Assembly (NCBI GenBank): GCA_964187785.1
Contig: OZ076409.1
Coordinates: forward strand, 74,898,001-74,962,000
Direction: 5' to 3'
Length of the DNA stretch: 64,000 bases
Source of the DNA: Amphiscolops sp. MND2022
Lineage: Eukaryota
Made by a program: the position numbers and the translations under genes. Positions 23,852 to 50,509 of this stretch are shown here, piece by piece (within the stretch, counting starts at the first letter, position 1; each line of letters begins with the position of its first letter). The notes beneath the pieces are model-generated. The model saw nothing but the letters and a program-made list of their open reading frames with translations, was not told where the DNA came from and made no database searches.

Positions 23852-25121
23852 GTGGCCGCGTCTTTTAGATGGACTTTTAGCCCTGAGGCGCGGGTAGGGT
23901 CCTGCGCCGACCTGGTGAAAATATACTCCTGGCAAATGGCCCGAATCGGAGACGATCTCAAAACTGGCCCGTACGATTTTCCTGAAAATTTGCATGTGGC
24001 CCCCAATTGGCGAGCAATGAAAAAGTGTAGGAGGTCATTTTCTCCTGGTTTCATTGTGAGACGAGATATATGAAAAAAACAGACCCCAAAATGACGAAAT
24101 TTTCACTTTTTGACCAAAAATGTGACATTATCTCCTCAGACAAGGCTCGGAGCAAAATTTTTCAGGACCCAAACCTGCAGCAGACTGTTAGAGCAGTGCA
24201 CACAGTAAGTTTGAAGGAAATCGGATAATCACATGTGGAGAAATTGACGTTTTTCCGGCGAAATTTTTCGCAAATGCAGTCTATCTCTACCGTTTTTTGC
24301 CCAAATTTTTTTCGAGACCCTCTCCTAAAGGCCTCCCCTGGCCCAATTTCCTTCCAACAAAACCATTTGGCCCTAAATACGAGGTTTCAGCGTTCCTGCA
24401 TTCCCCAGTGAAAAGTTATGGGACTTAGAAATTTTTCAAAAATTTTCAAATTTTTTCTAAAAAAGTTCAGGCCGCCCAAAGTGAAGAAACTTCCACACAA
24501 CTAGTATTGCAAGTGAAAGCATGTGGAAAGCCCTGCACTTGACGAGAAAAATGCCGTTTAGAACGTCTTTTTATCTTTACTTGATGTTGACTTATGATCT
24601 TTTGAGTAACGTATAACACGTGATCACAGTAGTGAAAATCCTAATTTTCAATAATTTTCAAACAATAACGCATGAAAAGAACCTGGAAAGGTTCCGATGG
24701 GTCAGTCGGGATGTCTGAAGCATGTGTACATTCCCGTAGCGTATAGCGGATGTATTAGGGACTTATTAGAAAATGTGATATAATTTATACAAGTCTTTGT
24801 TTCTCTTGGAATCTTATGCAGTTGAGTACATTCCATCTCCCTCTCAGGGGAGATGTGAATGTACGTTTGCCAAATGCCTTGTAAAGTTCACATGTTTGAT
24901 GGACCTAACTAAGTAAACAAGTGTGATTTGCGTTTGCCGAATCGCTACAGCAAAAAATACTAAAACTTTAGTCAGATTGAAAAGTTTTTGTCTTTAGTGT
25001 TTCTTCTTGTATAGCCGACTTCCACATCCAAATATCAACGCCCACCGTCCGTGGGCATGCCGAGGCATGCCCTTCGACGACGTATGCCAAATACCCAATG
25101 CCACGCTGTCATTATCGCTAG
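23852..25121 (+). mobile_element. Array unit 17, family A (1270 bp)
   Basis: Homologous to unit 8. Confidence 0.8.
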
Positions 25122-26524
25122 GTGGTCGGGTATTTTTTTTTACTCGTATATGACGTTTGCGAGGCTTTGGGGAGGGCCCCGTGCCGAGCCTGTTCCGAAA
25201 ATCGCCACATGTAGAAATCTGGCACTAAAATGCGAGATCTCAAAAAGTAGCCGTTAGAATTCTCTGAAATTTTGCATGTGGCTCAGAATTAATGAGTAAT
25301 GAAAAAGTGTAGGAGTGAAGGTCGCTGAAAAAATGGTCCTTGTTGCACTTTTTGCGCAATTTTTGTCTGATTGTTGCGTTTTTTATGTCATTTTGGACTT
25401 TTCAAGCAAAAAACTCATGGATGCTTTGTTCCTAGCGCATCAAGTGTGGAGCACGAAAAGTTGCAGCATCTCCAAGTGCGTATGCTGAGAAAATTTGGTT
25501 GCCGTCGGGTTACCCCCCACAGAGCTAGAGGGGTACTTCCGGTTATTTTTGACCCCCTAAATTAGGTAAACTGCTAATTTTTGTAATGAAGCCGTAGATT
25601 TAGCATGTCCGCACCCTGCTGAAGTTTTGTTAAACATTTTGAGAGAGACCCAATGACATGTGTTCAGTTCACCCCCCATCACCCCCTTGACCGGAAATGA
25701 ACGTTTTTGTGCACTTTCAGACCGGATGTCTCCATTTTCACCGGTAAGGAGGCCTTGTACGACCAAATAGCCGGATATCAAAATTGAAGTATAACCCAGG
25801 GTCAACTTAATGACCACGTGTTGTCCAGTCATGGGTTTTACTATGACCGGAAATGGGCTCAAAACCCCACTTTTAGTAGTTTTTTATCAATTTGAATAGT
25901 GTTTGGTCCACATTCAGGTGGCGTAAGTCACTTGCACCAGTGTGAGTATTAACTGCATGTTCCCTGCGTAGACGTAACTGACACTGTCAGATACCGGAAG
26001 TAACCCCATGTGACCGGAAGTGGTCAATTTTGACCGGAAATGGTCCAAAAAGTAGCGTAAAAGCAGTTTTTCACTACTTTTTAGGGACAATTTTTTACTT
26101 TTTTTCAATCTGAATGCCTCCTTTATACTACCAAAGCTAACATCGTTGCCTGTTTTGCTAAAGATTTGGTAATTGATTACCTTTATCAACCCCGATAGCC
26201 TTCCAAGTTGACCTTGGGTCAATCTTGAAGGCTATCTATACTTAAAACGAAAAATCGAGATAAGTTGTTTTCTCCATTACGTTGATAATTTTTCCTTGAT
26301 GTCAAATTGTTAAGCAAAGACTTTTAAGCAAATTAATGATCTGAATCTTGTTCAGAGGTCTCACCCTGAGGAAGATTATTTGAGATTGAAGTAAACTGAG
26401 AATGAGGTTAGTATTTGTCAACATCAGAGAATCTTATCAACGCCCACCGTCTGTGGGCATGCCGAGGCATGCCCTTCGACGACGTATGCCAAATAGCGCC
26501 ACAGGGCGCCCACACTTTTGCTAG
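25122..26524 (+). mobile_element. Array unit 18, family L (1403 bp)
   Basis: Homologous to 29595-31012; hairpin-3 at 26194-26236. Confidence 0.8.
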
Positions 26525-29500
26525 GTGGTCAGTGCTGTTGCGTTCATTTTTTTCCGGCCGTGGGGGAGGGCCCCTCTGAGGCCGGTCATTTTTCAGGTAA
26601 CAGCTTTCTTATACAAAAAAGCGGGAAAAAACCTCAGTGCTCAAATCCCAACCGTCAGAATGAGCTGAAATTTGGCATGTAGCTAGTGCATTGCAAATGA
26701 TTAGGATGGGTTATAACGCTATGTTTGGCAAAATTGGTTTTGTTGCATTTTTTTTGTCATATAAGGCCAAAAATGGCCTTTTTTGCGTATTTTTTGCTTG
26801 ACTAGCTAATAACTCGCGTTGGGTTGGTACTAGCGATACGGGTGTGGGGTATGGAATTGAAAGATTACCAAGTACCTTGCTGATCACGTTATTTGATTTC
26901 CGCTCACATCACCCCCCACGCCGGAAATGCCCAATTTGTCACTTCCGGTCGCAATTTTTGACTTTTTTGGATGGAGTTAAAACCCATTTCCGGTGTGAAG
27001 GAGTGGGTTGAGCGCTTCGACCCCAATATACTAAAAGTAGGTTTAGACAAAGTCCTATTAGGAAAAAAGTAATGTAAGCCCGTACCTATCACCCCCTCAC
27101 CGGAAATAGGGGTCACGCCTCCTTTTTCTGTGTTGCAAAAGTGACATGTGCACATTTGTCCAACTCCGAAGCCCCGGAGCACCGTGGGACCCTTATACTT
27201 TCTAAACACCTATCCCACACGCTACCGGAAGTGACCGGAAGTTTCACCGGAAATGACATCCTTGGACCGGAAATGGTCAAAAAATGACTTTTCAATGCAA
27301 AATAGACACATTTGGTGCGATTTTTAGGCAAAAAGCATAGTTCGTGAAACGCTTGTTGCAGTTGGAAGGGCCATTGTTCAGCAAGAATGCGTACAGCATT
27401 ACGTAGCACATCAAGTAGTTGATACTTTTTCGTCCATAATATCCTTAGGACCGGAAATGGCCATTTTGAATCGGAAACTTCTTCAGCTTGATTTTTAACA
27501 GGTTTTTCCGCAATATTAGCGTAGGAATTGCTCGTCGGATGCTGTAGGTCTATTTTAAAACTAGCTAACTGCTTCTTAGAAATGTATTTCAGAAGTCCCA
27601 ACCAATTCCAGAATACCGGAAATAAGAGTAATTGCCTCCTTTATGACCTTTGAATAATAAATTGTTAAAATCCGCATATTATTTTTTTCCACACTTGTTG
27701 CTGAGATTATATCTAAGCAATAACATGTGCTTGTCATGAAGTGCTGTAATGTGGCAGTTACGAATATTGCTATTTAAGAGTATTACATACGTGAATATCC
27801 GCCGTAATAAAGATTTTTTAAAACAACCACTTTTGAAGTCCTATAGATTGTCCGCACACCCGAAACAATTCAAGTTTCTAGTTTCGATTTTAAGGCTTCC
27901 GCGACTATTTAGTTGAGATGATAGTTTTCACGTTCTCTGCAAAACGTGCATTTCATTGTGTTTTTGACATTTATTGGGCTGTTTCACATTGTAATTCAAA
28001 ACTAATTGATTATACAATTTGGAACAATTGAAAATTTTCAATTGAACATTAAATGTTTTAATAGTTTCTCTTTCGTTGAAGATACTATTTTGTGGCCATT
28101 AGAACAGGTTGAATTAGTTGAATAAGTAGCCAGTGCGATACATCGTTTAATACATAGCGTTTGACATCGGTTTTTTTGCGAACAAAGACAAGCATGATTT
28201 GTTGAAAGTTTTTACCATATCGCTTCAAATCGGGTGTGACAAACAAGGAATTTCTCGTTTTATGTGCTACTCCGAAAGCAACCTGAAAACGCAAATCGAT
28301 CTATTGAATTATCGAGATGAAACTAAGCATTTCAAGTCTGGATTTCAATTTAATTCTATCACTCCGGTCTATTTTTATGTCGCAAGAGTGATAAAGCGTG
28401 TTAGCAAGGTTAAACACATCGAACAATTTTAATAATAAAGCCTCCGGAAAGGGAAGAAAAAATGAGTTTTCCTGTCAAAACTATGATAACCACGTACGAA
28501 ACATCAAGTTTTTGTATTTTTCAATAGTCCAAAACGTGAATGAAGTTTTTAAATATCCAAGCGTTTCTAATCAAGCATGCGTTTCAAATGTCTGACAGGG
28601 CAGCATCGTTCTCAAAAAACATTGCTTTCAATGTGGTTTGATACCAGCAAAACGAACGTAGGCACAACCAGATTCTCAAATTTCTTGCAAAACAGCCGAT
28701 TTCTTTGAAAATCCTAATTGATTTCACAGGGTATATGGTGAAACCCTGTTGGATTCCAAAAATGAAAAGCTGATTTCTTGGGTTTGCGAGATAAAAGACA
28801 ACGGGAATCTGAAAGCAAGTCATCTCAATAAAATACCTGTTGCTCTTTAAACAAATGGACTTTAGTAGTCGAAATTTTTTCTCAGACACTTTCGATCAGA
28901 GAATGTTTGAGTCCTAACGTTCGAATCAGGTTGGTTTCAGGTGGCTCGAAGTGCCAGCTGAACCAACCTTTCAAATAAAGAAAAACCCCACATCTCCCTT
29001 CATGCCACGCTGCCCCGTATAGCGTTTCAACTTGACAGAAGTTGGAACGTTTGATTTTGGCATCGCTTGGGATTGACACACCAGTGTTGATACTAAATTT
29101 GGCAAAGAGAAATCGCAGAAATGATTGTTTCTTTTTTTCCCTTTGATTTAGTCTGTCGAGCGTACAAAGCAGTTTGGGAAACTAACTTGCATTTCCACTG
29201 AACGAAAAAAAGTAGTAGCCTTGCAAACTCCTGGAAGAAATTGAGTCAGGTTTTCCTATTTGTGAGATCAGCTGTCACTCAATTATCAATTACTTTTTTA
29301 AAAATTTTTAGGAACAACTAACCTAACTCTGCTCGACTCTCTTGAATAATGCAACAATCGTTTACTGATCTGTACTCGTGAGAAAAAAATCAACTGCAGG
29401 TCCAAAAACAATCTATATATCTTTGGTTTATTCCGTGCAAAGCTTTTTTTCACACCATGTGACTCAACTATAACATGTATGTAATGAAACCAATAACACC

Positions 29501-29594
29501 TTCAACTATCAACGCCCACCGTCCGTAGGCATGCCGAGGCATGCCTTTCGACGACGCGCGCCGGAAACAATCTAACGGCGCCACCCGCTTCTGG
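26525..29594 (+). mobile_element. Array unit 19, family M (3070 bp), with ~1.8 kb of unique cargo, ends CTGG
   Basis: Typical 5' motifs; unique sequence at about 27650-29500; core at about 29509-29556. Confidence 0.7.
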
Positions 29595-31012
29595 GTGGTC
29601 GGGTATTTTTTTTACTCGTATATGACGTTTGCGAGGCTTTGGGGAGGGCCCCGTGCCGAGCCTGTACCGAAATTGGCCACATGTAGAAATCTGGCACTAA
29701 AATGCGAGATCTCAAAAAGTAGCCGTTAAAAATGTCTGAAAATTTGCATGTGGCTCTGAATCAATGAGTAATGAAAAAGTGTAGAAGTGACCATCTCTGA
29801 AAAAATGGTCCTTGTTGCACTTTTTGCGCAATTTTTGTCGCATTGTTGCGTTTTTTATGTCATTTTCGACTTTGGAGGCAAAAAACTCATAGATGCTTTG
29901 TTCCTAGCGTACCAAGTGTGGAGCACGAAAAGTTGCAGCATCTTCAATTACGTATGCTGAGAAAATTTGGTTGCCCTCTGGTTACCCCCCACAGAGATAG
30001 AGGGGTGCTTCCGGTTACTTTTGACCCGCTAAGTTTGGGAAACTGCTAATTTTCGTAAAGAAGCCGTAGATTTAGCGTGTCCACCCCCTGCTGAAGTATT
30101 GTTAGTCATTTTAAGATAGATCCGATGACATGCGTTCAGTTCACCCCCATCACCCCCTGGACCGGAAATGCACTTATTTGTGTACTTTCAGACCGGAAGT
30201 CTCCATTTTCACCGGTATTAGGTCCTTGTATGAGCAACTAGCAGGACATCAAAGTTAAAGTACAAACTGGGGTTAACTTAGTGACCACGTGCTGTCCAGT
30301 CATGGGTTCCGCTATTACCGGAAATGGGTTCAAAACCCCCCTTTTGGTCTGTTTTTCATCAATTTGACTAGTGTTTGGTCCACATTCAAGTCGCGCAAGG
30401 CAGTTGCAACAGTTTGAGCTCAAACTGCATGTTAACTGCGTAGATGTAACTGACAATGTCAGATACCGGAAGTAACCCCCTGTGACCGGAAGTTGTCATT
30501 TTTGAGCGGAAGTGGTCCAAAAAGTAGAGTAAATGCAGTTTTTCACTGCTTTTTAAGGCAAAGTTATTACTTTTTTCTATTAAAGTTATTACCTTTTTCT
30601 ATCTTATTGTTTTTTCCTACTCACAAAACTCACATTGTAGCTTGTTTGGGTAAATTCTGGAAAATCATTACCTTTATCACCCCAGATAGCCTTCCAAGTT
30701 GACCTTGGGTCAATCTTGAAGGCTATCTGTTCAGAAAACGAAAAATAGTGGAAATTGGGTTTCTCGTTTCTCGTTGTTATTTTTTCCATAAAGTTAATTT
30801 GTTAAATAAGGCTTTTGTTCAATTGAGTGATCTGAAATTTGTCCAGAGGTGTCACACAGACGAATACCATTTCAAGTTGAAGTAAACATATGATGGTAAT
30901 ATTAGACAACATCACACACACTTACCAACGCCCACCGTCCGTGGGCATGCCGAGGCATGCCCTTCGACGACGTATGCCAAATAGCGCCACAGGGCGCCCA
31001 CACTTTTGCTAG
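29595..31012 (+). mobile_element. Array unit 20, family L (1418 bp)
   Basis: Homologous to unit 18; hairpin-3 at 30683-30729. Confidence 0.8.
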
Positions 31013-32292
31013 GTGGCCGGAAATTTTTTTTTTCAGCAAAATCTTTGCCATTGGGGGAGGGGCCCCGGATGGCCAGTAGTTCGGCTTGGCTACCTGCAAA
31101 ATCAGGTACAAAAAAACACGATCTCAAAATTGGCCCGTCAGAATTCGCTCATTTTTTGCATGCGGCCCTAGAATCAATATATAAGAACAAAGTCCTGCTG
31201 ACGTTTTGCCGAAAAAACATTTTTTGTTGACCAAAAATAACATTTTTCATGCCAAAATGACCGTTTTTTCACATTTTTCAACTTTGAGAGCTCATATCTC
31301 GTTCCCAGGTGCCCGGAGCGGTTCGCACGTGAACTGCAATATTGCTCAACGTTGTTAACGGAGTGCGTGGACAAATTTTGGTCCAAATCGGACTTAAACT
31401 CGGGGAGATATAAACGGATTTTTGGGGGTTTCCGGGGTAAATTTTTTAACGGTCCAGCTTATCTTTGCCATTTTTTCGAAAATGTACTCGCCTAAAGGCC
31501 TCCCCCTGGCCGAATTTCCTCCCAGCAAAACCATTTGGCCCTAAATAAGGAGTTTCAGCGTTCTAGCATTTCCGGGTGAAAAGTTGTGGGACTTAGAAAA
31601 AATTCAAAATTTTTCAAAAAAATTTTTTTTTCGTTTTCCGGCCCCCCAATGAAGGGGAACGACCCCCCAACTAGGATTTTTGGTGAATCCATGTGAAAAG
31701 GTCTTGTTTAGTGGAGAAAAATGCCGTTTAGAGCGACTTTTTATCTTAACTTGACGTTGACTTATGTCGTTTTGAATTTGATATTAGTATGTGTTGAGCA
31801 TGTGATAAGTTGAATATTTCAGTTGTTCTTTCGTGTTAGCCATTGAGATACAAGCTGTAGTGATCAAAATGTGATTTTTCGCAGTTTCGTGGTGCCTTTG
31901 GTGTATTTTGATTCTTTTGATAAAAAGGTTGTTCTTTATTTTTTGACAATTTTGGTGTATTGATTCAAATGAACATGAAACAGTTGAGTACATTTCATCT
32001 CCCTCTTGGGGGAGATGAGAATGTACTCGCTAAAGTCCCAGTACTATGGCCCATTTTTGTTTTTTTCAGACGCAGATACTGCCAACCGATACTTTTTGTT
32101 GGTGCAACTTTCCTGTGCACAATGTCTTTAGAAGCTAGAAAACTCTATGTCTCTAGCTTACTTCTCCTACAAATTCGTCACCGACGTCAACGCCACACAC
32201 TCTCACTAACGCCCACCGTCTGTGGGCATGCCGAGGCATGCCCTTCGACGACGTATGCCAAATAGCGCCACAGGGCGCCCAATTTTGTCTAG
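31013..32292 (+). mobile_element. Array unit 21, F-related mosaic (1280 bp)
   Basis: F-like first ~70 bp, B-like middle, F-like region before hairpin-2. Confidence 0.75.
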
Positions 32293-34286
32293 GTGCGGGG
32301 GGGTAACCCCTACAAAGATATTGGAGGATTCGGGTAGGGTCCTGAATCCGAGTTCAGTGCTGCCAGCTATCGTTAGGGATTTGAGAAAATTTTGCCGATC
32401 TCGTGATCTAACCGTAGGATTTTAAAGTTGGAGCGGCCCCCACCAGATTTTCCAAAGTTATTCGCCCCCCACCGGGTTCCAGCGTGATTGAAATATTTTG
32501 ACGGGGTACACGGGCGACCGTTAGGGGTCATTTTGGGGGTAAAATTTATATCCGGTCGCATAACTTTTTTCCTGTTGGTTTAAAACTTTAGGACCCTGCT
32601 AAAAGTTTCTTGACCATGTTGCAGGGGCCCCGGAGGTCCAAACCAAATTTTTCTATCTTGAAGCTATCTCCAAGTACCCCCCCGCCCAAACCGTTATTTT
32701 TCCGGAAACGCCGGTTTTTGACCCGGAAGGAGTCGTCTGAGCGCGGGGTCGTTAGGTGATGTATTGGGGACGGCCTTGAGACGAAGCGGGGGATATATAG
32801 TTTGCCGACCCCAGTTTACCCCCCGCACGGGAAATGACCGTTATATGAGCGGGAAAAATGCCCCCCTCCGCGTTTTACCGCTATTTCCGGTGTGAAGGAG
32901 TGGGAGTAGCGCGTCGGGTGTTATATAACAAAAGTAGGTTTAGACAAGGACCTATCGGAAACATGTAGTTTGGGACCCCCTGGTCCAACCCGTTAGCGGG
33001 AAATGGGGCTTCCGCCTCCTTTTTTTACTGCTAAAACCGTAAAATGGGCATTGAGGGGTAAATATCTCGTGAACGCGTGGAGCTACGGTGTCCATCACTA
33101 CTACAAGGTTTCATACCCATGATATGGTGCCTTCAGGGGGGCAAACAGATTTCCGCTATCTATCACCGTTACGGACTTGGCCCCCCAGCCTAACCGCTAT
33201 GTGACCGGAAATATCACTTTTTGAGCCCAAAGGGTCGGTCCCAGCCGGGGAACGTTAGGTAACTTATTATAGTACTCATTGAGACGAGTTGGGGGATACA
33301 GTTTCAGTCACCCCCCGTTACCCCTTGGGACCGGAAATGACCGTTATGTGGGTAAAATTGCCATTTTTGTCCTATTTGGATGGCATTTAGGTGCGGAAGG
33401 AGTGGTAATAGGTGCTTGGACACTATATGATGTAAAAGAGGACGTGATGCGAGCATTCGAAATTAACCGTTATGTTGACCCCTAAGTCCCCCTGGTACCG
33501 TAAATGACCGGAAATGGTCTAATTTTGTGTTTATTGGGTACAAATGTTTGGTATTTTATGAATTAAAGTACATGGAAGGTGTTTCAAAGGCCTCCAGAAG
33601 TGAACATCGTCATGAAACCTTGTGGGGGGTAACGGTATATAACACCGGAAGTCCAAACCGTTGGTCACAGAATAGGTTTTTTGGTTTCAAAATGTCTTTA
33701 GGCGTAGTTTTATGGGTTGAATCGTCATAATATCAACTATTACGGACATTTTTCGGAAAAAAAAAATTTTTCACATTAGTTTCAGAGACCTCCAATGCTT
33801 CAGTCAACATAACCGTTACATTTTGATAGCCTTTCAAGTTGGCCTGGCGTCAACTTGGAAGGGCTATCCTTCTAAAATCGTTAATCAAGAGTGTTTTTGG
33901 GTAGGTATATGTTGCATTAGTACCAATTAGAGCTTCATCAACAGTTTGCCAACGGCAAAAACGATGTCGTGATAATTCCGTTATAAGAATATTAATTAAA
34001 AAATTGTTTACAAAGTTGATTTTTTTCATTTAAAATGTGTCCTAATGCCACCAAATTGAATAAAATAATAAATGGTATTGACTAAAACTAAATAACATTG
34101 AAAAAGAAGATCAACATTTTTATTAGGTCTCATTATGGAAGCTGAAACCTCACGTTTTAACTTGATTAACGTCAACGCCACATACTTTACATCAACGCCC
34201 ACCGTCTGTGGGCATGCCGAGGCATGCCCTTCGACGACGTATACCAAACAACCTCCATATCTACACCCGATTGCGGTAGCGGCTAG
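32293..34286 (+). mobile_element. Array unit 22, family H variant (1994 bp)
   Basis: Related to unit 11 with one fewer ~503-bp repeat; hairpin-3 at 33825-33868. Confidence 0.75.
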
Positions 34287-35674
34287 GTGGTTGGGGCGGT
34301 CCCCAGAACGCACAAGGAGGCGCGGGGAGGGTCCTGCGCCGACGTAGAATAATTTCATATAATACTAGTATCCTACATGGGTGTTTTAGAGGCGATTTTG
34401 GAATCTAACCGTAGGATTTGGATAATTTTTTGCATGCGGCCATAACTCGAAATTCTAAGAACTTTTTCCTACTGTCATTTTTCCCGCAAATTGTTTTTTG
34501 TTGACTTATGGCCGAAAAACCGGAAATAACGTTCTTTTTAGACGTTATATCCGAAGTGTCGTCATAACTTTTTTCCAGGGCATGCTAGCGTTCTTGTTCA
34601 CTTTTACACTTAGTTGCAGCATCTCAAAATACAACTGGTGGAAAATTTTGGTTGCATTCGGATCACCCCCCACCGAGATAGAAGGGTTCCCCCCTCCAGT
34701 TTTACCCCCCAAATTTGCGAAAAAGCCAATTTCGAGCATGAAGCCGAGGATTTAGCGTACCCGCACCCTTCTGATGTTTTGTCGTACAAATTGGGGTCAA
34801 TCGGATGACATGTGTGATTTTCACCCCCAACCCCCCTGGGACCGGAAATGACGTTTTTTTGTGTTTTTTGGCAGAAATTAGCCTTTTTCATTATAAGGCA
34901 GTCGTTTTAGGGACTCCTAGTAGGATATCGAAATTGAAATACAACCTGATCACAACCCAGTGACAACATGTTGGCCATTTGGAGGTACCATCAAGACCGG
35001 AAGTGGGGTCAACCCCCCTTTTTGTGACCGCTTTTTGACCTTGTGCACCAAAATGCCAACAACTTGAGGCCTAATGACGCATTCAAATCTGTACAAAGAT
35101 TGAATGTTAGACAACCAAAGTCCCGGAAGATCTTTAGCATATACCGGAAGTTACCCCCCATGACCGGAAGGTACCCAATGTGACCGGAAATGGTCCAAAA
35201 AGTAATGTAAAGTTGAATTTTTAACTATTTCCAGACCACTTCATTGAACATTTTCAATCCCAAAACTAGCGTACTGGCTTGTTTTGCTGAAGTTATGGAA
35301 ATTGATGAGCTCTATCACCCCCGATAGCCTTCGAAGTTGACCTTGCGTCAACTTTGGAGGCTATCGATTCTGAAAATGAACAACAGAGTTCATTGTTGCT
35401 CTCGTTTTTTTCCGTTGTTTTTCCTCAAACATTCTTGAGACATATACATGGCAGTTAGTTAAAATCAATTTTTTAGCCCATGTTATAGCGGGAGTAGCAA
35501 AGCGTTACACGGGCTAGTGTGGTTTTGAACTTACATTATTTTAAAATAAAAAAAGACCGTCTTAGTCAACGCCACACTTTCATAGCAACGCCCACCGTCT
35601 GTGGGCATGCCGAGGCATGCCCTTCGACGACGTATGACGAATCCACTTCCACGACGCCCGCAGTCCTCAGCTAG
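34287..35674 (+). mobile_element. Array unit 23, family I (1388 bp)
   Basis: Homologous to unit 12; hairpin-3 at 35322-35366. Confidence 0.8.
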
Positions 35675-36945
35675 GTGGCCGCGTCTTTTAGATGGACTTT
35701 TAGCCCTGAGGCGCGGGTAGGGTCCTGCGCCGAGCTGGTGAAAATATACTACGTCCAAATCGCCCGTTCCGGAAACGATCTCGAAAACTGACCGTTAGAA
35801 ATTCCTGAAAATTTGCATGTGGCCCCCAATTGGCGAGCAATGAAAAAGTGTAGGAGGTCATTTTTCCCAAATTCCACTGTGAGACGAGATATATGAAAAA
35901 AACGGACCCCAAAATGACGGAAATTTCACTTTTTGACCATTAATGGGACATTATCTCCCCAGACAAGGCTCGGAGCAAAATTTGTCAGAACCCAAACCTG
36001 CAGCAGACTGTTAGAGCAGTACACACAGTAATTTTGAAAGAAATCCGATAATCACATGTTGAGAAATTGACGTTTTTCCGGCGAAATTTCTAGCAAATGC
36101 AGTCTATCTCTGCCGTTTTTTGCCCAAAATTTTTCCGAGACACTCGCCTAAAGGCCTCCCCTGGCCGGTTTACCTCTCAAAAAAACCATTTGGCCCTAAA
36201 TACGAGGTTTCAGCGTTCTAGCTTTTCCCAGTAAAAAGTTATGGGACTTAGAAGTTTTTCAAAACTTTTCAAAATTTTTCTAAAAAAGTTCAGGCCGCCC
36301 AAAGTGAAGAAACTTCCACACAACTAGTATTGCAAGTGAATGCATGTGGAAAGCCCTGCACTTGACGAGAAAAATGCCGTTTAGAACGTCTTTTTATCTC
36401 AACTTGATGTTGACTTATGATCTTTTGAGTAGCGTATAACACGTGATCACAGTAGTGAAAACCCTAATTTTCAAAAATTTTCGAACAATAACGCATGAAA
36501 AGAACCTGGAAAAGGTTCCGATGGGTCAGTTGGGATGTCTGAAGCTTGTGTACATTCCCGTAGTGTATAGCGGATGTATTTGGGACTTATTAGAAATTGT
36601 GATATGTTTTATACAAGTCTTTGTTTCTCTTAGAATCTTATGCAGTTGAGTACATTCCATCTCCCTCTCAGGGGAGATGTGAATGTACGTTTGTCAAATG
36701 CCTTGTATATTTCACATCTTTGATGGATTCAAATAACTAAACAAGTGTGATTTGCGTTTGCCGAACCACTGCGACAAAATACCCTAAATCTATAGCGAGA
36801 TTGTATGGTTTTTGTCTTTAGTGTTTCGTCTTGTGTAGCCGACTTCCACATCCAAATATCAACGCCCGCCGTCCGTAGGCATGCCGAGGCATGCCTTTCG
36901 ACGACGTATGCCAAATACCCAATGCCACGCTGTCATTATCGCTAG
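35675..36945 (+). mobile_element. Array unit 24, family A (1271 bp)
   Basis: Near-identical to unit 1. Confidence 0.8.
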
Positions 36946-38333
36946 GTGGTTGGGGCGGTCCCCAGAACGCACAAGGAGGCGCGGGGAGGGTCCTGCGCCG
37001 ACGTAGAATAATTTCATATAATACTAGTATCCTACATGGGTGTTTTAGAAGCGATTTTGGAATCTAACCGTAGGATTTGGATAAATTTTTGCATGCGGCC
37101 ATAACTCGAAATTCTAAGAACTTTTTCCTACTGTCATTTTCCCCGCAAATTGTTTTTTGTTGACTTATGGCCGAAAAACCGGAAATAACGTCCTTTTTAG
37201 ACGTTATATCCGAAGTGTCGTCATAACTTTTTTCCAGGGCATGCTAGCGTTCTCGTTCACTTTTACACTTAGTTGCAGCATCTCAAAATAAAACTGGTGG
37301 AAAATTTTGGTTGCATTCGGATCACCCCCCCACCGAGATAGAAGGGTTCCCCCCTCCAGTTTTACCCCCCAAATTTGCAAAAAAGCCAAATTTGAGCATG
37401 AAGCCGAGGATTTAGCGTACCCGCACCCTTCTGATGTTTTGTTGTACGTATTGGGGTCAATCTGACGACATGTGTGGTTTTCACCCCCAACCCCCCCTGG
37501 GACCGGAAATGACACTTTTTTGAGTTTTTTGGCAGAATTTAGCCTTTTTCATTACTAGGCAGTCGTTTTATGGACTCCTAGCAGGATATCGAAATTGAAA
37601 TACATCCTGATCACAACCCAGTGACAACATGTTGGCCACTTGGAGGTACCATCATGACCGGAAGTGGGGTCAACACCCCTTTTTGTGACCGCTTTTTGAC
37701 CTTGTGCACCAAAATGCCAACAACTTGAGGCCTAATGACCCATTCAAATCTGTACAAAGATAGAATGTTAGACAACTGAAGTCCCGCAAAATCTTAGCAT
37801 ATATCGGAAGTTACCGCCCATGACCGGAAGTTACCCAATGTGACCGAAAATGGTCCAAAAATTAATGAAAAGTTGAAGTTTTCACTATTTCAAGAGCACT
37901 TCATTGAACATTTTCAATCGCAAAACTTGCGTACTGGCTTGTTTTGCTGAATTTATGGAAATTGATGAGCCCTATCACCCCCGATAGCCTTCGAAGTTGA
38001 CCTTGCGTCAACTTTGGAGGCTATCGATACTGAAAATGAACAACAAAGTACATTGTTGCTCTCGGTTTTTTCCCGTTGTTTTTCCTCAAACAATCTTGAG
38101 ACATATACATGGCCGTTAGTTGAAATCAATATTTAACCCATGTTATACCTGGAGCAGCGAAGCGTTACACAGACTAGTGTGGTTTTGGAATTACATTATT
38201 TAAATTAACAACAGATCGTTTTAGTCAACTCCACACATTCATACCAACGCCCACCGTCTGTGGGCATGCCGAGGCATGCCCTTCGACGACGTATGACGAA
38301 TCCACTCCAACGACACCCGCAGTCCTCAGCTAG
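36946..38333 (+). mobile_element. Array unit 25, family I (1388 bp)
   Basis: Homologous to unit 23; hairpin-3 at 37982-38026. Confidence 0.8.
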
Positions 38334-39448
38334 GTGGCCGGGAATTTTTTTCTGCTCAATTCTTTGCCAACTGGGGGAGGGGCCCCTGGTGGCTGTTACC
38401 CAAAATACATACCTACTAAATTCCGGTGCTCTGAGTACGATCTCGAAAACCACCCGACAGATTTTTCTGAAAATTTGCATACAGGCCTAGAATCAAATCC
38501 TAAGAACTATTTCCTTCTAGCGTTTTTCCGAATTTTTTCAAAAAGTTGGTCAAAAATGCAACAAAAGTTGCCAATGGACATAAAAAACGCAACTTTTCGA
38601 CTTTGAGGGTCTATAACTTTTTCCAGAGTGCCTGGAGCGGTTCGCACGTGGACCACAACATTGCTCAGCATTGTCGGAGGAGAACGTGGACAAATTTTGG
38701 TTCGAATCGGATGAAAATTGACTGAGAAATAAACGAAAATTTTCGTGCATTTGTTGCAAATACCAGTTTATCTTTGCCATTTTCGCCCAAAATTTTTCCC
38801 AGAACCTTTACAGGAGGCAACCCCTGCCCAAATTTCTGCCGAACAAACCCATTTGGCCCTAAATACGGTGTTTCAGCGTTCTAGCATTCCCGGGCAAAAA
38901 GTTGTGGGACTTAGAAAATTTTCAAAAAAACGCAAAAATTGTAAAAAGTAACTTCTGGCGTCCCAAAGTCAAGAAACTTTCACACAACTAGTATTGCAAG
39001 TGAATGCATGTGGAAAGTACTCGGATAGACGAGAAAAATGAGCTATAGAACAACTCTGTAGCTTATTCTGACGTTGACTTATGACATTTTGAGTGTGAGC
39101 ATCCTTTTGGATTTTATTGTCAAAAATGAGATTTTGTAAGTCATGTCTCATCAAAGACTCATCGGAATACGTTCAATCATCCCCAAAGCTGTTCAATCAC
39201 CGTGCCTTAGTAGAGCAACGCCATTTAATGTCTTTCGACTCATTTTGAAAATTTTCGTTACCGTCTTATTCGTCCGATATCACGAAACAGTTGTTAAGTT
39301 TTTTTATATGGCTTGTCCAGACGCCCCAGTTGGTGTGTCGCGCTTTTCAGCACCGCGTTTCCTGAAGCCGCTGAGATTCTAACTCTGTCTGTACTCTGCG
39401 TTTTAGATTTACTATTTTAGGCATTGGTTTCCTGAATCGCGTTTTCTT

Positions 39449-39790
39449 GGCTTAGGTTTCTAGTGCCTTGGTTTTAGGCTTGCATATGTTAGGCTTAGGC
39501 TTCTCTGGATTAGGTTGCATAGGCTTATGTTTCCTAAGTTAGGTTTCTTCGGCTTTGCTTTTTTTTACCGTTATATTCATTAGGCTTAGGTTTATTAGGC
39601 TTAGGGTCCTTAGGCTTAGATTAATTAGGCTTAGGTTTCTTAGGAGATAAGTTTCTTAGGCTTAGGTTTTTTGGCGTTTAGGTTTCGTAGGATTAGGTTT
39701 CTTCGGCTTAGGTTTAATAGGTTAGGTTTCTTAGGCTTCGCTTTTTTAGGCTTTGGTTTATAGTTTAGGTTCCTTAAGCGTAGGGTTTCT
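39449..39790 (+). repeat. Degenerate TTAGG-containing minisatellite (about GGCTTAGGTTTCTTA, ~15-bp period)
   Basis: Many TTAGGC/TTAGGT words in tandem. Confidence 0.8.
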
Positions 39791-40435
39791 AAATTAGCTC
39801 TTTAGTGTGTTTTTCATTGTTTCCGTTATGGGTTCATTAAATATTTAACTCGTATATAATTCAATGTTTTTTACACAGGTTCTCTGCAGAGTCAAGAAGC
39901 ATTCCACATAATCAAGTTTTACACAACGTTCCAGATTTACACAACATTGTTCACTATTTTCAAGATGAAGTCTTCAAAATCAAAATTCAAGATTATAAAA
40001 CATCAAAAAGCACTACGATAACCTTTACAACATCGAGCTAAGTTTTCTTCATCTAAAAATTCATCTTTGCATTAACTTTTCTTGTTTTCAGGAGAGGGGT
40101 CTACTACTTTGGTTGTACATGCCTTCAAGTTGTGGCTTTCTCAAAGTACATTTTGAGGAGTGCATTGTGCTTGTTTGTTCTGTGCGGGCATGTGATGTGA
40201 TGGTCTCATTTCTGATTGTCTCGTGGTTAGAGAATGTAGTGTATTAGTATGATTTTGGAATTTTAGACAATTTTGTGCTGTTCGGTCTCTTGTTTGTGCT
40301 GTGCTGGAGGCTCTTGTTCTGTATGTTCTGATTCAGTAAGTGTCATGTATAAGAACCAATGTTACAAATGTTTCGCACTTACCAGTTATCTTTATGTATC
40401 TTTACCAGTTCTTAGATAACGTTGTCTTCGTTCTC

Positions 40436-40660
40436 TGTGTTATTAGCATACGGGTGTGTTTGTGTGTGCTTGTGAGCGTGGAATGAGGTTGTGTCGGTGT
40501 GCTTTTGTTTGTGGTGTGTGTTATTAGCATACGGCTGTGTTTGTGTGTGCTTGTGAGTGTGGAATGAGGTTGTGTCGGTGTGCTTTTGTTTGTGGTGTGA
40601 AGTTTTGTGCGCGTGTGTGTGTGTGTGTGTCTGGGTTTGTTGTGTGTATGTGTGTGTGTC
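40436..40660 (+). repeat. 81-bp tandem duplication followed by a TG-rich microsatellite
   Basis: TTATTAGCATACGG at 40440 and 40521; (TG)n at about 40613-40630. Confidence 0.85.
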
Positions 40661-42831
40661 AGTTTTTATGTTTTTAATACCAAAATGAACAAAGCATTGA
40701 TTTTTGTTCAGATATCCTATCATTGTCGTGAAGGAATCAAATCGAGATAAAAGTGCGCGTGAAAGAGCAAAATCAAGACACAACAACGTGGTCATTTTTC
40801 ACAAAGCCTTTTCAAAAACTACTGTGTGTTTGAAAATATTGACTTAAAATGGACAACTCATTGACATTCCACAAATTACTGCAACTGCCAACCGGGAGAA
40901 GATGTTTTGGTTTTGCATGTCGCCACGCTCTGTGTCTGCTGAAATACCAAAAGGCAACTTCTTCAAGTTATTAACCCAAGTTGTTACATCAATCAATTCA
41001 CATCAACTGTAAATAGTTAACACGATATTTGTTCGTACTGTGTGCCATAATTATCCATAAGCTTCAATTATTACATCCGATATAATCATGTTAAATACAA
41101 ATCTTTCAATGTCTAAATGAACTAAACATATAGCATTGATTATGTGTTACAAACACCAATGAAAAAACATTTAGCATTGACATTAGTTTTCAAATTAAAC
41201 CTATTGTGCACTGCTTTTGCATTTGAAGCTTTTGAGTTAAGTAGCAACAAATAAAAAGACGAAATGATAAAACTTCCGAAACAACGCAGCGGTCTTCATA
41301 AAATTTTGCAATACTGTCGACATGCACTACTTTGTTCAATGATTGAGTTATTGAAAAAGTCGATTGTAGCCATCAGTGGTAGTGAATACTTGAACGTTTT
41401 GGTACAATTTATAGTTTTTATATTGCTTCGAAGAGAATTTTCAAACACTCAACTTGGGTATTTAGTTTTTGCTAATCAATGATATCATCGATTCAATTAC
41501 AACATGTTGTAAGATGTCCAAGAAATTAGTAGTTTCTTTTGTCTATCAAATCATCCTTCGGATCCAAACTTTGGGAAAAAAAATTTGAACTACAATTTTC
41601 CTAATTTTTCCTTTTTGAAGAAAGTTTGTTCACACATTTTATCTGCATCAATGTTTTAGTACCGTAAAATTTATTTCGTTCAAATTGTCAGCAAAATGTT
41701 TTGTAAGAAAGTTCAAGAATCTAAGCAATCAACATCAGAAGTCTCTAACAAGCTCTTCAACCAGGAACTTTAGAGATGGTTTCCATGTGTTATTTTCAAT
41801 AGGTATTGGATATGATTCCTTCGACAAATATTTGAGATGATTCCTCACCTATAAATAGTCTCGTCCCTTATCTACGTATACCATTGAACATTGCTAGAAA
41901 AATCTGTTTCGGTGAAAAGTATGATTTTGATATTCTTTTTCCAACAATAACATTTTATGTGTCAACAAGCCATTGTCCATTGTTGTGAAAGATTTCGTTT
42001 TCTCTTTAGTAAAAACCTTTAGTAAAAAAAACCCAAAAGCAAGTGGATTAATTCTTAGATTTGAAGCCAAATTTCTTGAAGAGAGCTTTGAATACTCAAA
42101 TGGATATCATCGCGCGTACCACAGAAAATCTTCGTTGTTGAATCCAACGAACTAAATGTTGTTCTCAACTCTGTGTTGTCTTATTTTCCACTTGTCGGTG
42201 TTTGATATTTTTCTACTTATTTCTAGATTATCTGATGTGACTTTCATGTCAAAAAATGGGCAACAAGAAAGTGAGTTATTCTTAAATTTTTAGAATTTGT
42301 ACATTATTTTATCAACTGTCATGTAAATATATTTTACTTCAGAGAAAAAGCGTAAGCAAATGCGGCGTTTGCGCTAGGATTGTGTCAAGGAATGTATCTT
42401 TCTGCGACTTACACCAAGAAGAAAGTGGTTCAGTTGTAAGTTTAAAAATAGACTAAAAATTTACACGAGTTGATAGCCTTTCCAGTCGTTAACGTTTCAA
42501 CTTTTTTGTTTAAAGAACCAGATAGATGAAACTAGTCCCCCTGCCGAGAAAAATCAGAGGCGTTGTGGTTAGTAATTCTGTTCATGATGTAGATCTCCAC
42601 TCATTTCGGTAAAAGCTGCTTTCAAATTACTACAGGTCATATTCCGCTAATTGTAAAAACAAAATAATTGTAGAGCCGTTTGTCGCTTCCAATTTATTGT
42701 CTCATCCGTGTTTCCCTTGATAAGGTACCATTCTTCTTGTGTTCCGTCCTTGTTCCACAACCCAGATTGCTTTTGTTTAAGGCTCCAATCTTGCAGGAAC
42801 TTCATCAGTTGTTCCAGATGCAAACTTTTCT

Positions 42832-45800
42832 TTGTCGTCAGAGCACCTTCCGATCGAGGAATCTTTACCACAAACTGCTTGTGTTGGATCTCTCGAACAC
42901 CACGACCACACTGACACTGCCCCTTCCACAATATTCGCAACTCCACCTTCTGACTCCCACGATGACCACTTCAACTTGAAACAAAAGCTGAAGAAACATT
43001 TAGTTCTCAACACCGGTGAAACGATTAACACCAACAGCATGTCTTTCAATGGTCCTACCTGTGACAAGTGTTTGAGGAAATCAACCGAGTCCTACGACAT
43101 TGGCGTTTGTACTTACGATTCCTCTGAACTTCACATTAGGAAAAGAAAATTTGGCCAAAAACTTTCCTCAAATGGCCGCATCAGTCTTTGTACATCTTGT
43201 ATTACCTATACGACAACTGACGCCCGTTCATTCAAAACCGCATGGCCCAGTATTCTATGTTCCTATTGGGTTAGTGAAGACAAAGATGAGGCCATTTTAG
43301 AGAAACTTATTTCTTTACTTCCTTGTACAATTCTTGAAATGTATTGTCATTCCATGGAAAAATACAGTCAAGTATTCAAAAGTGTTCTTGAACGCACTAA
43401 ATTGGTGGTAGCAGACAGAACATCTGACAGAAGTCTTCTCCTTCTGAACAATGTTGAGCTGAAGGGTGCTGATTTGAAACGGAATTATGACAAATTTCCC
43501 CTTCCTGATGTAGTTTGTCCATGGGGCTGCTGGGACTTCGTAGAAAAATGTCAAACACTGTCGTTTGAATGTTTCCTTGCTAACATTGATTCTGATTTCC
43601 GCAATTGGACCCACAAAGAATCGTTGTTAAGAGGTGTTACATCCAATTTTCCACAAGGTTTTACTTTGCTCCAAAAATTTGAGATTACACCCGCTGTAAT
43701 CATAGAAGAAGATGGTCATTTAGCATATCTTACTTGTTCGAAGCACTCGGGCGAAACTTTGCAGTATTTACATCCCCCTCGAAACCCAATACTTAGCAGT
43801 GTGTCACCCAACAAACCCGAACGACTGGCCCTAACTCAACAGCAACTGAATATTGTTAAAACTGGGAAACCGAAGTTTAACTCTCATTCTAGTCACTTAA
43901 TCGAAGAAAAAGGAAGTTTTACCGGCATCAGCAGTAGTACTCTTCAATTCCCCACGTTTTTAGACCGTTCAACTCTACTGAACGACCTTTCCGAGTCTGT
44001 TATCTCAAAAGGACGTTCCGATGTAAACCCACTCGTCGAATATTATTTAGAAAACAATATCGTCGATCAGAACTTTGTCGACTATTTGTTCAACAGTAAC
44101 TTCAATCTCACCACACATGAAATTGAAGTTGCAATTTCAAACTCAACGAATGTTTCTCTCTACGACGCCTTCAAGTTGCAGATGCATTTGAATGAAAACC
44201 AGAATACTGATGAGCTGCAGATTTTTTCTCCTGTCTACGCCCACAACCTTGGAAAAAAATCTGATTATGGTTGTGTGCCACCATGTCTTTTCACAACAGG
44301 AACTATCGCAAAAGTATTCGAATGTTTGGTTCGTTTTACTGCGTCATTTCTCCCGAGTTTGCGTAATTCTGATGACGACTCTCTTCGCCAACTTTCCAAT
44401 AGCTTTTGCAATCTTTTGTTTTTGACGGCGTCAAAAAAAAGCGCAATTAACGATGCCAGAGCTAAAGTTTTGAGGATTACCGAAAACATCACCGAACAAT
44501 ATTCCAACAATTCTCCGTCGTTGAATAAATTCTTCGATTATCTCGTTGCCGGAAATTTAGCTGCCTTCAAAGTTCCATCTCGTTCATTCACAAGTATTCC
44601 GACGACTGCCACAAGCTCTGTCGAAGGGCCTCTTTTTGTTTTTGCTCCCTCCCGGTCAGAGCGTGATAGTAATATACCCATAGACACTTTGACACATAAT
44701 TCGAAAACATACCAACTTGTTTTCTTGAGCAAAAACTTCTGGAAAGCTGAATTTTACTGCCGCCATCAAAGAACTAATTCCGCATGGTTCGAGTCCTTCT
44801 CTTGTTCGAACTCATTCACAGAAACCAGTTTTGGGAACTTTTACGATTTCGCAGCTAAAGGGACTTGGGATTGTGCTGTCTACGAGAAGCTGGAGACGTC
44901 TGATAGCCAAACGATGCTTGGAACATTTTTGAAGAGTATCGGGGGCCAGGGCAACATTTCATGCGAAAGACACAATTGTCTCTTGATTCAAAAGAATCCA
45001 ATGGATACTTTGACTTGCTTCAAGACTTTATGCAGGAAGAAAGCCAAATGGATATGCCCGAAAGTAGAATGCAATACTGGAGTGTGCAAACAACATTCAG
45101 AAGCGCTGATAATCGAGCCTTCAATGTGTGCAATTTCAAGTACTAAAGAACGAACTGCCCCTAGCTTCAGTGAGAACTTGGAAGACCAAAATGACCATAG
45201 TTTTGACAACGAAACACTTTTCGAACGTAACAGTCTCCAAGAACATGAGCTGAACCTAATTTTTGAACCAGACAACTATTTGACAATGTCTGTTGATACC
45301 TCAGACCAGGCCCTTCCCTTTTCGTCGAATTCTGGTGTTCCTTTAGTAACTTACTCCAAAGAAGAAACCCACAAGAACAGAGTACCAACAAAAGTACTTC
45401 TCAACAATTATTTGAACGTTCTCCAACGCACCAAAGTACCTCTTTGGACAACTAATGCTCACAAAAATTTCTTGCAGAGCATTGTTAGCAGAGTTCCTAA
45501 TACGTCTGTGCCACTTTTATACCCAGAAGCGCTCTTATTTCCGAGTATTTTTTGGAAGCAACAAGAAGATGGTTCCTTTGCGGGTGCTTTACCATCGTGT
45601 TTACTCCAGTCAGACGAACTCAATACCAAACTTGGTTTCGCAACTGTTTCGAAACATCTCTGGAATAGACTAACGAATGGCAGCTTGCTTACGTCGACCA
45701 GTATTGGATATGCCAGTTTTGCTTTTGACATTAAAATGAATCAAGAGCTCAATAGGAGTCATAGCAACTACATTGTGTTCAAAAGAGGTTTCGAAGATTA

Positions 45801-48800
45801 CTTGGGTGCAGATGAAGCCTTGAAACTCCCTAACTGTGCCATCAAATGGGATGGACTTGACAGCTCCAAGAGAGTCCAAGAAGTCGCAGCTGCCTGTGCA
45901 GAAGAAAGCCCACATTACTTTTTCACATTGACGTGTTCAATGGCGGGTCAATTTGGTGTTCGTCCACTGTTTGAGGCTCTGAAGGAAACATATGGTAACG
46001 AGAACAAGGATGTTTATGAAGCAGTTGTCCAGAGTTTCATGGGATTGTTTGTACGTATGTGGGAAAGGATGTCTTCTGTTGTGATGGAGTACATAGAGAA
46101 TTCCAGCGAAAAGCCATTGGGACATGTGTCAAGAATTTGGTGGAGGTACGAATTTCAGACGAGTCAAGGCAATTTGCCTCATATCCACTGCTTGCTTTGG
46201 GTTAATGAACTGAAATCGTCAGAGTCTTTCCAGAATCGAGTTGTGCTCAAAAAGTCCCAACTTTTGTTCTCTCTTGAAGACCCATTTCTAAAGACAGTAG
46301 GCCTTGTTAAAGACGCAGATCATGCTTTCAAGCTTTATAAAGATGCTGTCAAAATACATTACCACTCTTGCGCAGCAACAAACTTCAGATGCCACAAGAG
46401 AACAGATGAGAATGGACAAAGTTTTTGTCGCTATCCCGTTTACCCAACAAGCGCAGAATATCATTTGGAAGAAGTGGATGTCAACCATTCGGAAGAAGCT
46501 TTTCATGTTTTGTCATTATGCCAACTGGCTAAAGAAAAGATTGGTAATGTCGACACGATGTGTGTAACAGAAGAATTGAAAGCTGGCCAGTGGTTTTATC
46601 CAAGCCAAAAAAATCAAAATGTAACACCAATGAATCCATATCTTTTTGTCCTCACAGAATCTCAGAACAACCTTTTGATCTGTGACAAGTACCTCTCTGC
46701 TCGTTATATAGCAAAGTATGCTGCCGGAGCAGAAGAGAAGGCTAACGTTTCAATAACTGCTGGCAAAAATCATAATGAGTTGCATGTTGATGTCGGAAAC
46801 ATCGAAAACAACAAAATCGCAAGTGTCCAACATCGCTTGAGAAAGGAAGAACAACAGCAGCGAAAAGGATCTTGTCAAGCAAAGCACATTTGTATCACCG
46901 AATGTTATTGGCACCTCTTTGATTTGCCTTTTGTCCGATCCTCTTTCTCGAGTATATGCCTGAACACAAATGAAATGGAAAACAGACCTGGAGTGAAGCT
47001 AACCCATCAAAGACGACGTCTTGCAACCCACAGCGAGAGCCAGTTTACTTCACCTCTAATTACTGTTCGTGATCAATTGCCAAACTGGCGACAATTCACC
47101 GAAAGTCAAAAACGGATCGTCCAGCTACACTGTGAAAGCAACATTTCTGTGAGTAACATCACTGCTCACAGTGCGCGACCTCCGGAATTGTTGTTCATCA
47201 AAAACCCTAAACAATATTTTTGGCTTTTTTCACGGGAAACTATCAAGAAACCGACTACGTCTCAGCTTTGCCAAATGTTAAGATCCAACAGAATGGTTTG
47301 GATTGATGGATTCGGGAAACAAATATTGGTTCGAAGAAACCGTGTCCCTCAATTTCTCGACATTTTGCAGAATTCTACGGAAAGAAGTGCCTTATCTCTC
47401 AGAGCTGCTATTGAAACTGAAGAAGACATGGCCTCTTTAACATCAAAAATCACGGACTCCAGAAGCAATATAGTAGTGTACTTTTCAAAAATATATCCTT
47501 CTGATGCAGGAAAGTTCTTGATACACCTCCTTCTTTCCATGGGCGAATTCGAAACCGAATTCGATCTCTTCAACTGTAGAAGTTTATTGGACAGTTTCAA
47601 AAAAGCAGGACTCTGGACGGAATCTTCTGTTCGGCAAAACATTTTGAAACTCACGAAGAAGTACATTTTAGAGGAGGCTCAATTTCTGCCGGGTTCCACC
47701 AGGATGTTCAACAAAAACGTGGTTCAGTGTTTTCAAACACTGACAGAGTTTTTTGAAAACGGTTCCATTGATTATGTAGAGCTACCCCGTGTTCTTTTAT
47801 CATCAGTGCAAGCTGCTGTCGACAGTAAAGTGGACGTTTTTCTAAAACAGGCACGTGTGAACATTGCCAAAGGGTTGATTGCCAGCGGCAAAGTGCCGAA
47901 TTGTCCAAGTGAGTTGCAAATTGCCCAGGCTACGACTGCGACTTGTTTTCCTTTCTCTCCCACTCTTGCCACTTTGCCAACTCAAACTGCGACCAGCTAC
48001 GGGAAGCAAAAAGCTGTCCTTAATCTATTTATCAATGCCATCGACCAATATCTGTCAGGTTCGAAAGTTTTTGTGCCGCATCACTTCGCTCTGGGAAAGC
48101 CAGGAACTGGCAAGTCCACTATCACTCTCGTGGCCACTTGCTATGCCATGTGCAAAGGACTCTGTTGTATGCTTACCACATTGGCCGGTGAGAAAGCAGC
48201 CCAGTTTGGAGGAATGCACCTCCACCGACTTATTCCCATTCCTGTCAAAACAAGTCTACCAGTTATGAAGCAAGTAGAGTCCACCGTTCAGCGGCTATAC
48301 CACGACCCTCTGAGACTAACGTTTTTGAAGCGATTGGATGTACTGGTAATTGAGGAAGTTGGAATGTTGAACTCTGAGCAGTGGAGTGTTTTAGACCACA
48401 CACTTCGTTTTGTGAACAACTCAAACGTTCCGATGGGTGGTATTTTGGTGTTGGGAAACGGCGACCCAAAACAACTCAGACCTCCTTCAGGACCACTGCT
48501 TTGGATTTCTCCGATTCTTTATACTAACTTTAAACTCTTCTACCTGGCAGAGTACATCAGGATGATTGACCCTTTAGGAGCAAGGCTCTTAACGTTACTG
48601 GATAGACTTGAGGTCACTGATGCCGAAGCAGAGGAAATTGTAGAGATCCTTTCCAATAACAGTACGTTTGTCGAAAAATGGTCGGACATTCGAAACGATG
48701 AGGCCATTTTGAGAGTTGTGCCAACAAAACAAGCAGAAAAGAAATTAGTCAATGAAAAGTACAATCTGATTAGAAGTACAAACAACTATCACATAACTTT

Positions 48801-50391: not shown

Positions 50392-50509
50392 TCCTGTCTG
50401 GCATTTTTCAAACTGATACCTTGAAATCATATTTGGCTCTTGTCTTTTAACTGCACTATCGTGTTTTGTGTTATATGAATCAAAAATTCCCAAATTGCCG
50501 TTGATTTTC

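Follow-up and report, generated by a model that had tools for sequence, protein, structure and literature searches.

The 64 kb of DNA described here carry an array of units of a divergent Helitron lineage, whose transposase, RepHel, probably copies one non-autonomous unit at a time into existing internal CTRG|GTG joints. That RepHel drives the mobility of the units is very likely. Unit boundaries inside a 7-base core, common end structures, a mixed order of unit families and an intact open reading frame (ORF) with Helitron domains are directly supported by the data. Head-to-tail Helitrons are already in print; what sets the present array apart is its scale, a 7-base core that is non-canonical, and the lineage to which its transposase belongs.

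A continuous array joined at a 7-base core

The window, i.e. the whole stretch of 64,000 nt that was analysed, is filled from end to end (1..64000, plus strand) by one continuous head-to-tail array of 33 complete units and 2 units that are cut by the window edges. Its GC content is 41%. Units were assigned by hand to ~18 families on the basis of an identity matrix; all of them lie on one strand, with zero spacer between them. The core sequence CTRGGTG is found at each of the 34 junctions (CTAG in 32 and CTGG in 2 cases), and no host base is duplicated. Counting both strands, CTRGGTG occurs 39 times versus 9.05 ± 3.0 expected, a number reached in none of 100 shuffles, and the 34 matches on the plus strand each lie at a unit boundary. 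Internal plus-strand cores were not observed versus 2.6 expected; this absence is not significant, as 18 of 200 shuffles also contained none. We placed the left boundary of a unit after CTRG by analogy with the CTRR ends of Helitrons, the array alone fixing the cut only within 7 bases. With this cut 22 of the 33 complete units measure 1264–1303 bp and six measure 1388–1418 bp; the remaining five have lengths of 1994, 2194, 2792, 3070 and 15,001 bp. Neither an array end nor a solo copy lies within the 64-kb window, so that targets other than joints may exist as well. No recognisable foreign transposon ORF breaks up the 64 kb, which suggests that the array is young or fast-turning.

Written in family letters, the 35 units read E A B B C D E A A F G H I F J K L A M N M O H I A I D A I P J J J Q R. 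Same-family neighbours, in the runs A-A, B-B and J-J-J (units 30–32), occur four times versus 1.9 expected from shuffled orders (p = 0.11), and three mixed neighbours are repeated versus 1.3 expected (p = 0.12): E-A, H-I and A-I, each found twice. The order looks random by these tests, though their power is low. Given the three recurring adjacencies, occasional copying of two units is possible. A more general movement of multi-unit blocks, in which read-through past a joint would yield circles of two or more units and single-unit moves would be part of the traffic, could explain the same adjacencies, and bypass of the end has been described for canonical Helitrons (PMC5148889). We nevertheless regard it as very unlikely, as the excess of repeated neighbours is not significant and the halves of repeated pairs have diverged unequally (86% and 94%; 85% and 96%).

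Identity between related units ends at the junctions

Unit 24 (35675..36945, plus strand) is a non-autonomous unit of family A with a length of 1271 bp, bounded by CTAGGTG cores at 35671..35677 on its left and 36942..36948 on its right (both plus strand). It is identical to unit 1 (853..2123, plus strand, likewise family A) at 1270 of 1271 positions: the sole substitution is C at 1355 and T at 36177, and there are no gaps. Exact identity continues for 5 bases upstream (GCTAG) and 4 bases downstream (GTGG). Unit 1 lies in the order E-A-B and unit 24 in the order I-A-I. A first-pass annotation of the window had reported the single substitution, the GCTAG and GTGG bounds and the different neighbours, and our alignments and family calls agree with it on all of these as well as on coordinates and numbering. 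It had also named units 9 (11987..13274) and 13 (18735..20022; both family F, plus strand) as a second case of the same pattern. Here the ends are indeed sharp (exact runs of 5 and 3 bases beyond them) and the neighbours differ (A-F-G versus I-F-J), but the two copies, with 28 mismatches and 97.8% identity, are less close than units 1 and 24. In neither pair does identity run past the junctions into the bodies of the neighbours, the point on which the annotation had let its reading depend: these are 52% and 52% identical for units 1 and 24, and 52% and 55% for units 9 and 13. The BLAST match of units 1 and 24 spans 760–2127, ~90 bases further upstream, because most units end in one common terminal block; the family-specific tail between this block and CTAG differs. 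That assembly or polishing made the identity or the neighbours is highly improbable: units 1 and 24 are told apart by one base and other copies by 2–15%, the units are merely 1.3 kb long, and a locus from a separate assembly (L007, see below) has an identical joint.

The neighbour test covered 25 of the 30 unit pairs with an identity of 82.7% or more; the five pairs left out involve unit 27 or are the pair 30/32. Both neighbour bodies were at background (63% or less) in 20 of these 25 pairs, the exceptions being 1/7 (left neighbours 87%), 25/28 (left neighbours 91%) and three pairs with the J family. When only the upstream family is shared between two junctions, the identity of the tails (30 bases before CTRG) is 0.86 (n = 29), compared to 0.53 for junctions with the downstream family alone in common (n = 28) and 0.52 for those with neither (n = 500). 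For the heads (after GTG) the corresponding values are 0.48, 0.90 and 0.50. The sequence of a tail goes with the family upstream of the junction and that of a head with the family downstream of it, which places the switch within the invariant 7-mer; homologous crossover would instead be expected to fall in the longer terminal block that most tails have in common. An overlap of 7 bases is too short for ordinary homologous recombination.

Within family A the informative sites demonstrate that units are block mosaics of one another; unit 27, for example, is first unit-1-like, then unit-7-like and then unit-8-like. Recombination or conversion between family A copies is thus real, and whole-unit gene conversion alone could yield the 1270/1271 identity of units 1 and 24. 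A third copy, beyond the window, may also have given rise to both units 1 and 24. The annotation had concluded on recent, precise movement of single units, a reading that our results support. Unit-exact ends, mixed neighbours and a matching transposase with the same ends in the array argue for such movement; that it was recent is an interpretation with which conversion could compete.

Conversion is also part of an alternative in which the array goes back to an old rolling-circle concatemer or satellite whose units diverged where they stand: it would have been reordered and homogenised by gene conversion together with unequal crossover, and units 1 and 24 would represent a conversion tract that ends where homology ends. 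The mosaic blocks of family A are consistent with this, as are the same-family runs together with the three repeated mixed neighbours, and homogeneous tandem Helitron arrays have been published (PMC5876387, PMC12001565). A crossover in the common terminal block, however, would move the 35-base tail with the downstream unit, whereas the tails follow the upstream family. Moreover, neighbouring families are mostly 52–72% identical and stand in a random-looking order, and units 29 and 33 have a tail type like that of L007, whose RepHel lineage differs, yet the core is identical. We consider diversification in place unlikely, and favor the copying of single units into joints by RepHel.

Hairpins, lengths and phasing of the units

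A 5′ hairpin is predicted at 35710..35731 in unit 24 (plus strand); its loop, (G/T)AGGG, is conserved while its stem differs from family to family, and the loop motif is present in 33 of 34 heads, 39–59 nt from the unit start. Support for this fold is moderate: z-scores range from −3.8 to +1.2, and the native arm beats a swapped arm in 233 of 306 comparisons while 73 of the 306 swaps fold as well. The internal hairpin is strong, and in unit 24 it is predicted at 36650..36688 (plus strand, about 17–20 bp). All 33 non-autonomous units that reach a 3′ end possess one, in three unrelated sequence types; in the 1.3–1.4-kb units it is located about 290–350 nt from the end. The respective 46-nt windows fold at −13.0 to −21.5 kcal/mol, compared to −10.3 kcal/mol for the best of 24 shuffled bodies, and G-T pairs in 25 related hairpins favour the plus strand 15 to 3. 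At the 3′ terminus a hairpin of the form (G/A)GGCATGC-CGAG-GCATGCC(C/T) is predicted (36877..36896 in unit 24, plus strand), which was found in 31 of 34 tails, 43–57 nt before the end; its closing pair is G-C in 23 cases, A-T in 7, with both bases changed in concert, and broken in 1. Units 16, 29 and 33 bear a different tail type. We rejected the idea of co-adapted ends, as a unit's own tail and head fold no better together than the tail with a foreign head (−2.30 versus −2.40 kcal/mol).

The longest stop-free frames in nine small units comprise 79–175 codons. Nine ORF translations (8 minor ORFs and the N-terminal part of RepHel) gave no Pfam match above the cut-off, and an Rfam search gave none at gathering score. 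AAA/TTT tracts are phased in 28 small units, with autocorrelations of 0.12, 0.08 and 0.06 at lags of 10, 20 and 31 and of about 0 in the ORF. These 28 units of 1264–1418 bp combine an A/T phasing of ~10.3 bp with tight lengths although their families are mostly 55–72% identical; bent DNA, the positioning of nucleosomes or a constraint on circle size may lie behind both properties. Some units deviate in their internal structure: the 5′ loop motif is missing from unit 6 (7251–9444), in which a second, degenerate copy of the terminal block at 9173 precedes the intact copy by 197 bp, and internal duplications were observed in unit 11 (14921–16120; ~500-bp period, 83%) and unit 34 (63184–64000; ~355-bp period, 71%).

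A candidate autonomous unit with a Helitron transposase

Unit 26 (38334..53334, plus strand) is a candidate autonomous element of 15,001 bp with the head, tail and junctions of the other units, including the common core, the 5′ loop motif and the 3′ hairpin block. The internal hairpin type of the small units is absent from it. Its first 960 bp (38334–39293) are 93% identical to unit 5 (5980–6941), and the match stops exactly before the internal hairpin of unit 5. We rejected small units as simple deletion derivatives of unit 26, given the missing hairpin type and the restriction of the unit 5 match to these 960 bp.

The RepHel ORF (42832..49890, plus strand) is uninterrupted over 2352 codons, and its first methionine at 43039 gives a protein of 2283 aa. 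It is the only ORF above 170 aa in the window, on which grounds a cassette system based on a tyrosine or serine recombinase was rejected. Pfam identified Helitron_like_N (PF14214, 6e-7) and PIF1 (PF05970, 1.8e-8), both above the cut-off. Rep motif I (45916), the HUH motif (HIH, 46180), YIAKY (46705), Walker A (48094) and Walker B (48349) follow one another on the plus strand, and the catalytic motifs, the two tyrosines (Y2) and the Walker motifs are intact in the alignment. A decayed GIY-YIG-like tail is located near 49558 (plus strand). The best match of the Rep model, a model of low confidence (mean pLDDT 53.9), is Helraiser (7lcc) with a Foldseek E of 7e-5 and a VIA Z of 12.5 (rmsd 3.1, 206 residues; next Z 6.2). 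At the sequence level RepHel resembles Helraiser over about 135 residues of the helicase only (25 bits), and a Rep profile searched against PDB sequences gave no match at E ≤ 10. The N-terminal 780 aa (43039–45378) contain Cys/His patterns that are conserved across relatives and have no Pfam match; a weak USP-like Atlas lead (score 0.82) is below the Atlas threshold. A second RepHel, 99.4% identical, is found on another contig, which suggests recent copying or a second haplotype.

Beyond the transposase gene unit 26 contains a long hairpin (50352..50397, plus strand, −20.2 kcal/mol) about 460 nt past the ORF stop, and repeats: a degenerate 15-bp TTAGGCTTAGGTTTC satellite (39449..39790, plus strand) and a 296-bp satellite in 3.7 copies (50512..51595, plus strand), alongside which the tracts 40436–40665 and 52622–52709 are listed. 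One satellite of unit 26 is TTAGG-like.

Relatives of RepHel and the core at a second locus

We found 345 relatives of RepHel (representatives of 50% clusters) at E ≤ 1e-30. Named ones come from Styela clava (tunicate; several full-length proteins), Myxine glutinosa (hagfish), Perkinsus olseni and Attheya (diatom). Eight of 17 scanned relatives carry a GIY-YIG domain and some relatives carry OTU or Ulp1 domains. DUF6570 or an apurinic endonuclease was found in none of 18 proteins; the Atlas look-alike clusters at ranks 7 and 19 carry DUF6570. Viral contigs gave no relative, neither by protein (29 candidates, none confirmed) nor by the terminal-block pattern. A co-location of RepHel proteins (28 of 55 hand-listed ENA entries, by indirect contig matching) is not counted as support, as there is no null model for it.

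At 40 related metagenome loci, within the sequence covered at each, the junction was seen once. This locus, L007, encodes a RepHel that is 32% identical and has an intact GIY-YIG motif; its ORF is followed after 3.4 kb by CTAG|GTGG and the same looped hairpin as in the window, where the contig ends. The joint could lead to another unit or to the element's own head. Over 66 nt the region is 83% identical to the window junction at 61120, and its tail resembles that found in units 29 and 33. A tree that contained no labelled Helitron references placed L007 together with P0069 and separate from the RepHel of the window, an indication that the core serves more than a single transposase lineage. A second ORF of 356 codons (stop to stop) lies between RepHel and the CTAG end of this locus (L007:4032–5102). 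At two further loci, L020 and L021 (25%), the loop motif precedes the match by about 2.2 kb, and no such core was seen. In L023 and L029 the strongest hairpin is located just past the end of the RepHel match; given this position, the long internal hairpin of the units might also serve as an RNA 3′ element.

Comparison with known Helitron groups

The array shares with the Helitron-like superfamily a fusion of an HUH Y2 Rep and a PIF1-like helicase, as judged by Pfam, the motifs and the best fold match (7lcc), and non-autonomous next to autonomous elements with common termini. Helraiser forms plus-strand-derived circles with a precise right-left junction, and such RTS-LTS junctions are cleaved precisely in vitro (PMC5876387); each joint of the array is a junction of this kind. 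Likeness to Helraiser and the HLE1 group as they are described (PMC5876387, PMC11417382) comprises the fused Y2 HUH Rep and PIF1 helicase, the 3′ CTRR, a 3′ hairpin, short non-autonomous partners with the same ends, the lack of a target duplication and the right-left junction as substrate. The 3′ CTRR is present with the assumed cut (CTAG in 32 and CTGG in 2 of 34 junctions). However, the 5′ TC of HLE1 is absent, CTRG being followed by GTG at 34 of 34 junctions. HLE1 elements have a hairpin of 16–20 bp at 10–15 nt before the 3′ end; in the array the conserved hairpin is 43–57 nt away, and short family-specific stems occur nearer to the end in some tails. The units also have extra 5′ and internal hairpins. 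Insertion at A|T is not seen either: with the assumed cut the joints are G|G in 34 of 34 cases within the window, outside which the array ends lie, and the core contains no AT step.

HLE2 elements (Helitron2/Helentron, DINE-1/HINE; PMC11417382, PMC4067079) resemble the array in their hairpins at both ends and in the OTU or Ulp1 domains of some RepHel relatives. Their asymmetric terminal inverted repeats of about 12–16 nt have no counterpart here: the longest exact inverted match between head and tail averages 5.3 nt (maximum 8) in 33 units versus 5.5 nt with tails of other families. There is also no TT within the core that could correspond to T|T insertion, and the DUF6570 or apurinic endonuclease reported for the group is lacking in the 18 proteins mentioned above. 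Replitrons combine a Y1 Rep with the lack of a helicase (PMC10288648), in contrast to the Y2 motif and fused PIF1 of RepHel. The Helitrons of Paramecium, a third clade, share with the array a divergent RepHel, a proposed sequence-specific and strictly oriented insertion, satellites in autonomous copies and ORF-less derivatives (PMC13085455). Compared by ends and layout, they differ in that they end in CCAA and have telomeric repeats on both flanks, whereas the array units end in CTRG and abut directly (PMC13085455).

RepHel might also move single units but add them at one array end only, i.e. before the newest head or at the chromosome end, and not into internal joints. The fly elements HeT-A and TART are an analogous case of addition at a chromosome end. 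Such polar stacking would yield an equally mixed order on a single strand, and the TTAGG-like satellite of unit 26 would suit it. Insertion beside an existing Helitron has been proposed for a maize pair (PMC2267711), and the Paramecium Helitrons are oriented at chromosome ends (PMC13085455). On the other hand, units 1 and 24 are one base apart with 22 units between them, all of which would have arrived in a very short time; telomeric repeats are found at none of the 34 joints, unlike in Paramecium; and the heads start with GTG, lacking the initial T by which canonical Helitrons can stack at A|T. We assign a rather low probability to addition at one end and retain insertion into internal joints.

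Head-to-tail Helitrons have been described as a dissimilar pair in maize, read as consecutive insertions (PMC2267711), as three elements in Metarhizium (PMC5148889) and as arrays of 2–7 repeats in Xenopus (PMC12001565). Their tail-to-head joints are likewise perfect, but in the published accounts they consist of two or three elements or of repeats of one, with canonical ends; the present array spans a minimum of 64 kb, in which at least 35 units from about 18 families are joined by a single 7-base core. Arrays of bat and plant Helitrons have reportedly been published as well. In the literature searched, with Repbase, subscription papers and supplements outside its scope, no paper was found that describes a CTRGGTG core or a many-family array of such size.

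A model for insertion into joints

By analogy with the biochemistry of Helraiser, RepHel would nick the plus strand at one joint, the helicase would peel this strand off up to the next joint, and a second nick would close a circle one unit long, with CTRG|GTG once more at its joint. In the present array the circle would then be transferred into another joint, probably recognised together with the flanking hairpins. Each insertion would recreate two joints, so that the array would grow as a landing site common to many families, and homologous recombination between units of the same family would afterwards mix their interiors. Such a cycle of nicking, peeling, circle formation and insertion would account for the single strand, the missing spacers, the mixed order and the unit-exact identity.

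A broader version is conceivable, and we put it forward tentatively. A widely spread and so far undescribed Helitron lineage, often with a C-terminal GIY-YIG domain, would have turned into a sequence-specific, self-targeting integrase with the hairpin-flanked CTRG|GTG joint as its sole target, and dozens of unrelated passenger families together with several transposase lineages would assemble arrays of cassettes that are held in common and can be reshuffled. The passengers, constrained in length and phased at 10 bp, would then be optimised minicircles, each with its own hairpin for second-strand synthesis or processing.

For the most part, known Helitrons integrate into dinucleotide sites dispersed across the genome. 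If the proposed mode of insertion is true, a lineage that targets its own junction would spare genes and assemble mixed arrays of large size. How a eukaryotic HUH transposase chooses its target could then be tested in a natural case; the accounts of Helraiser consulted do not settle this step. A target of 7 bases plus hairpins that accepts kilobase cargo would be of interest for building integration tools. The named relatives, in particular those of Styela clava, make the prediction of arrays checkable in a public genome. Should the arrays prove to be subtelomeric or centromeric, they would have a bearing on how transposons build such regions.
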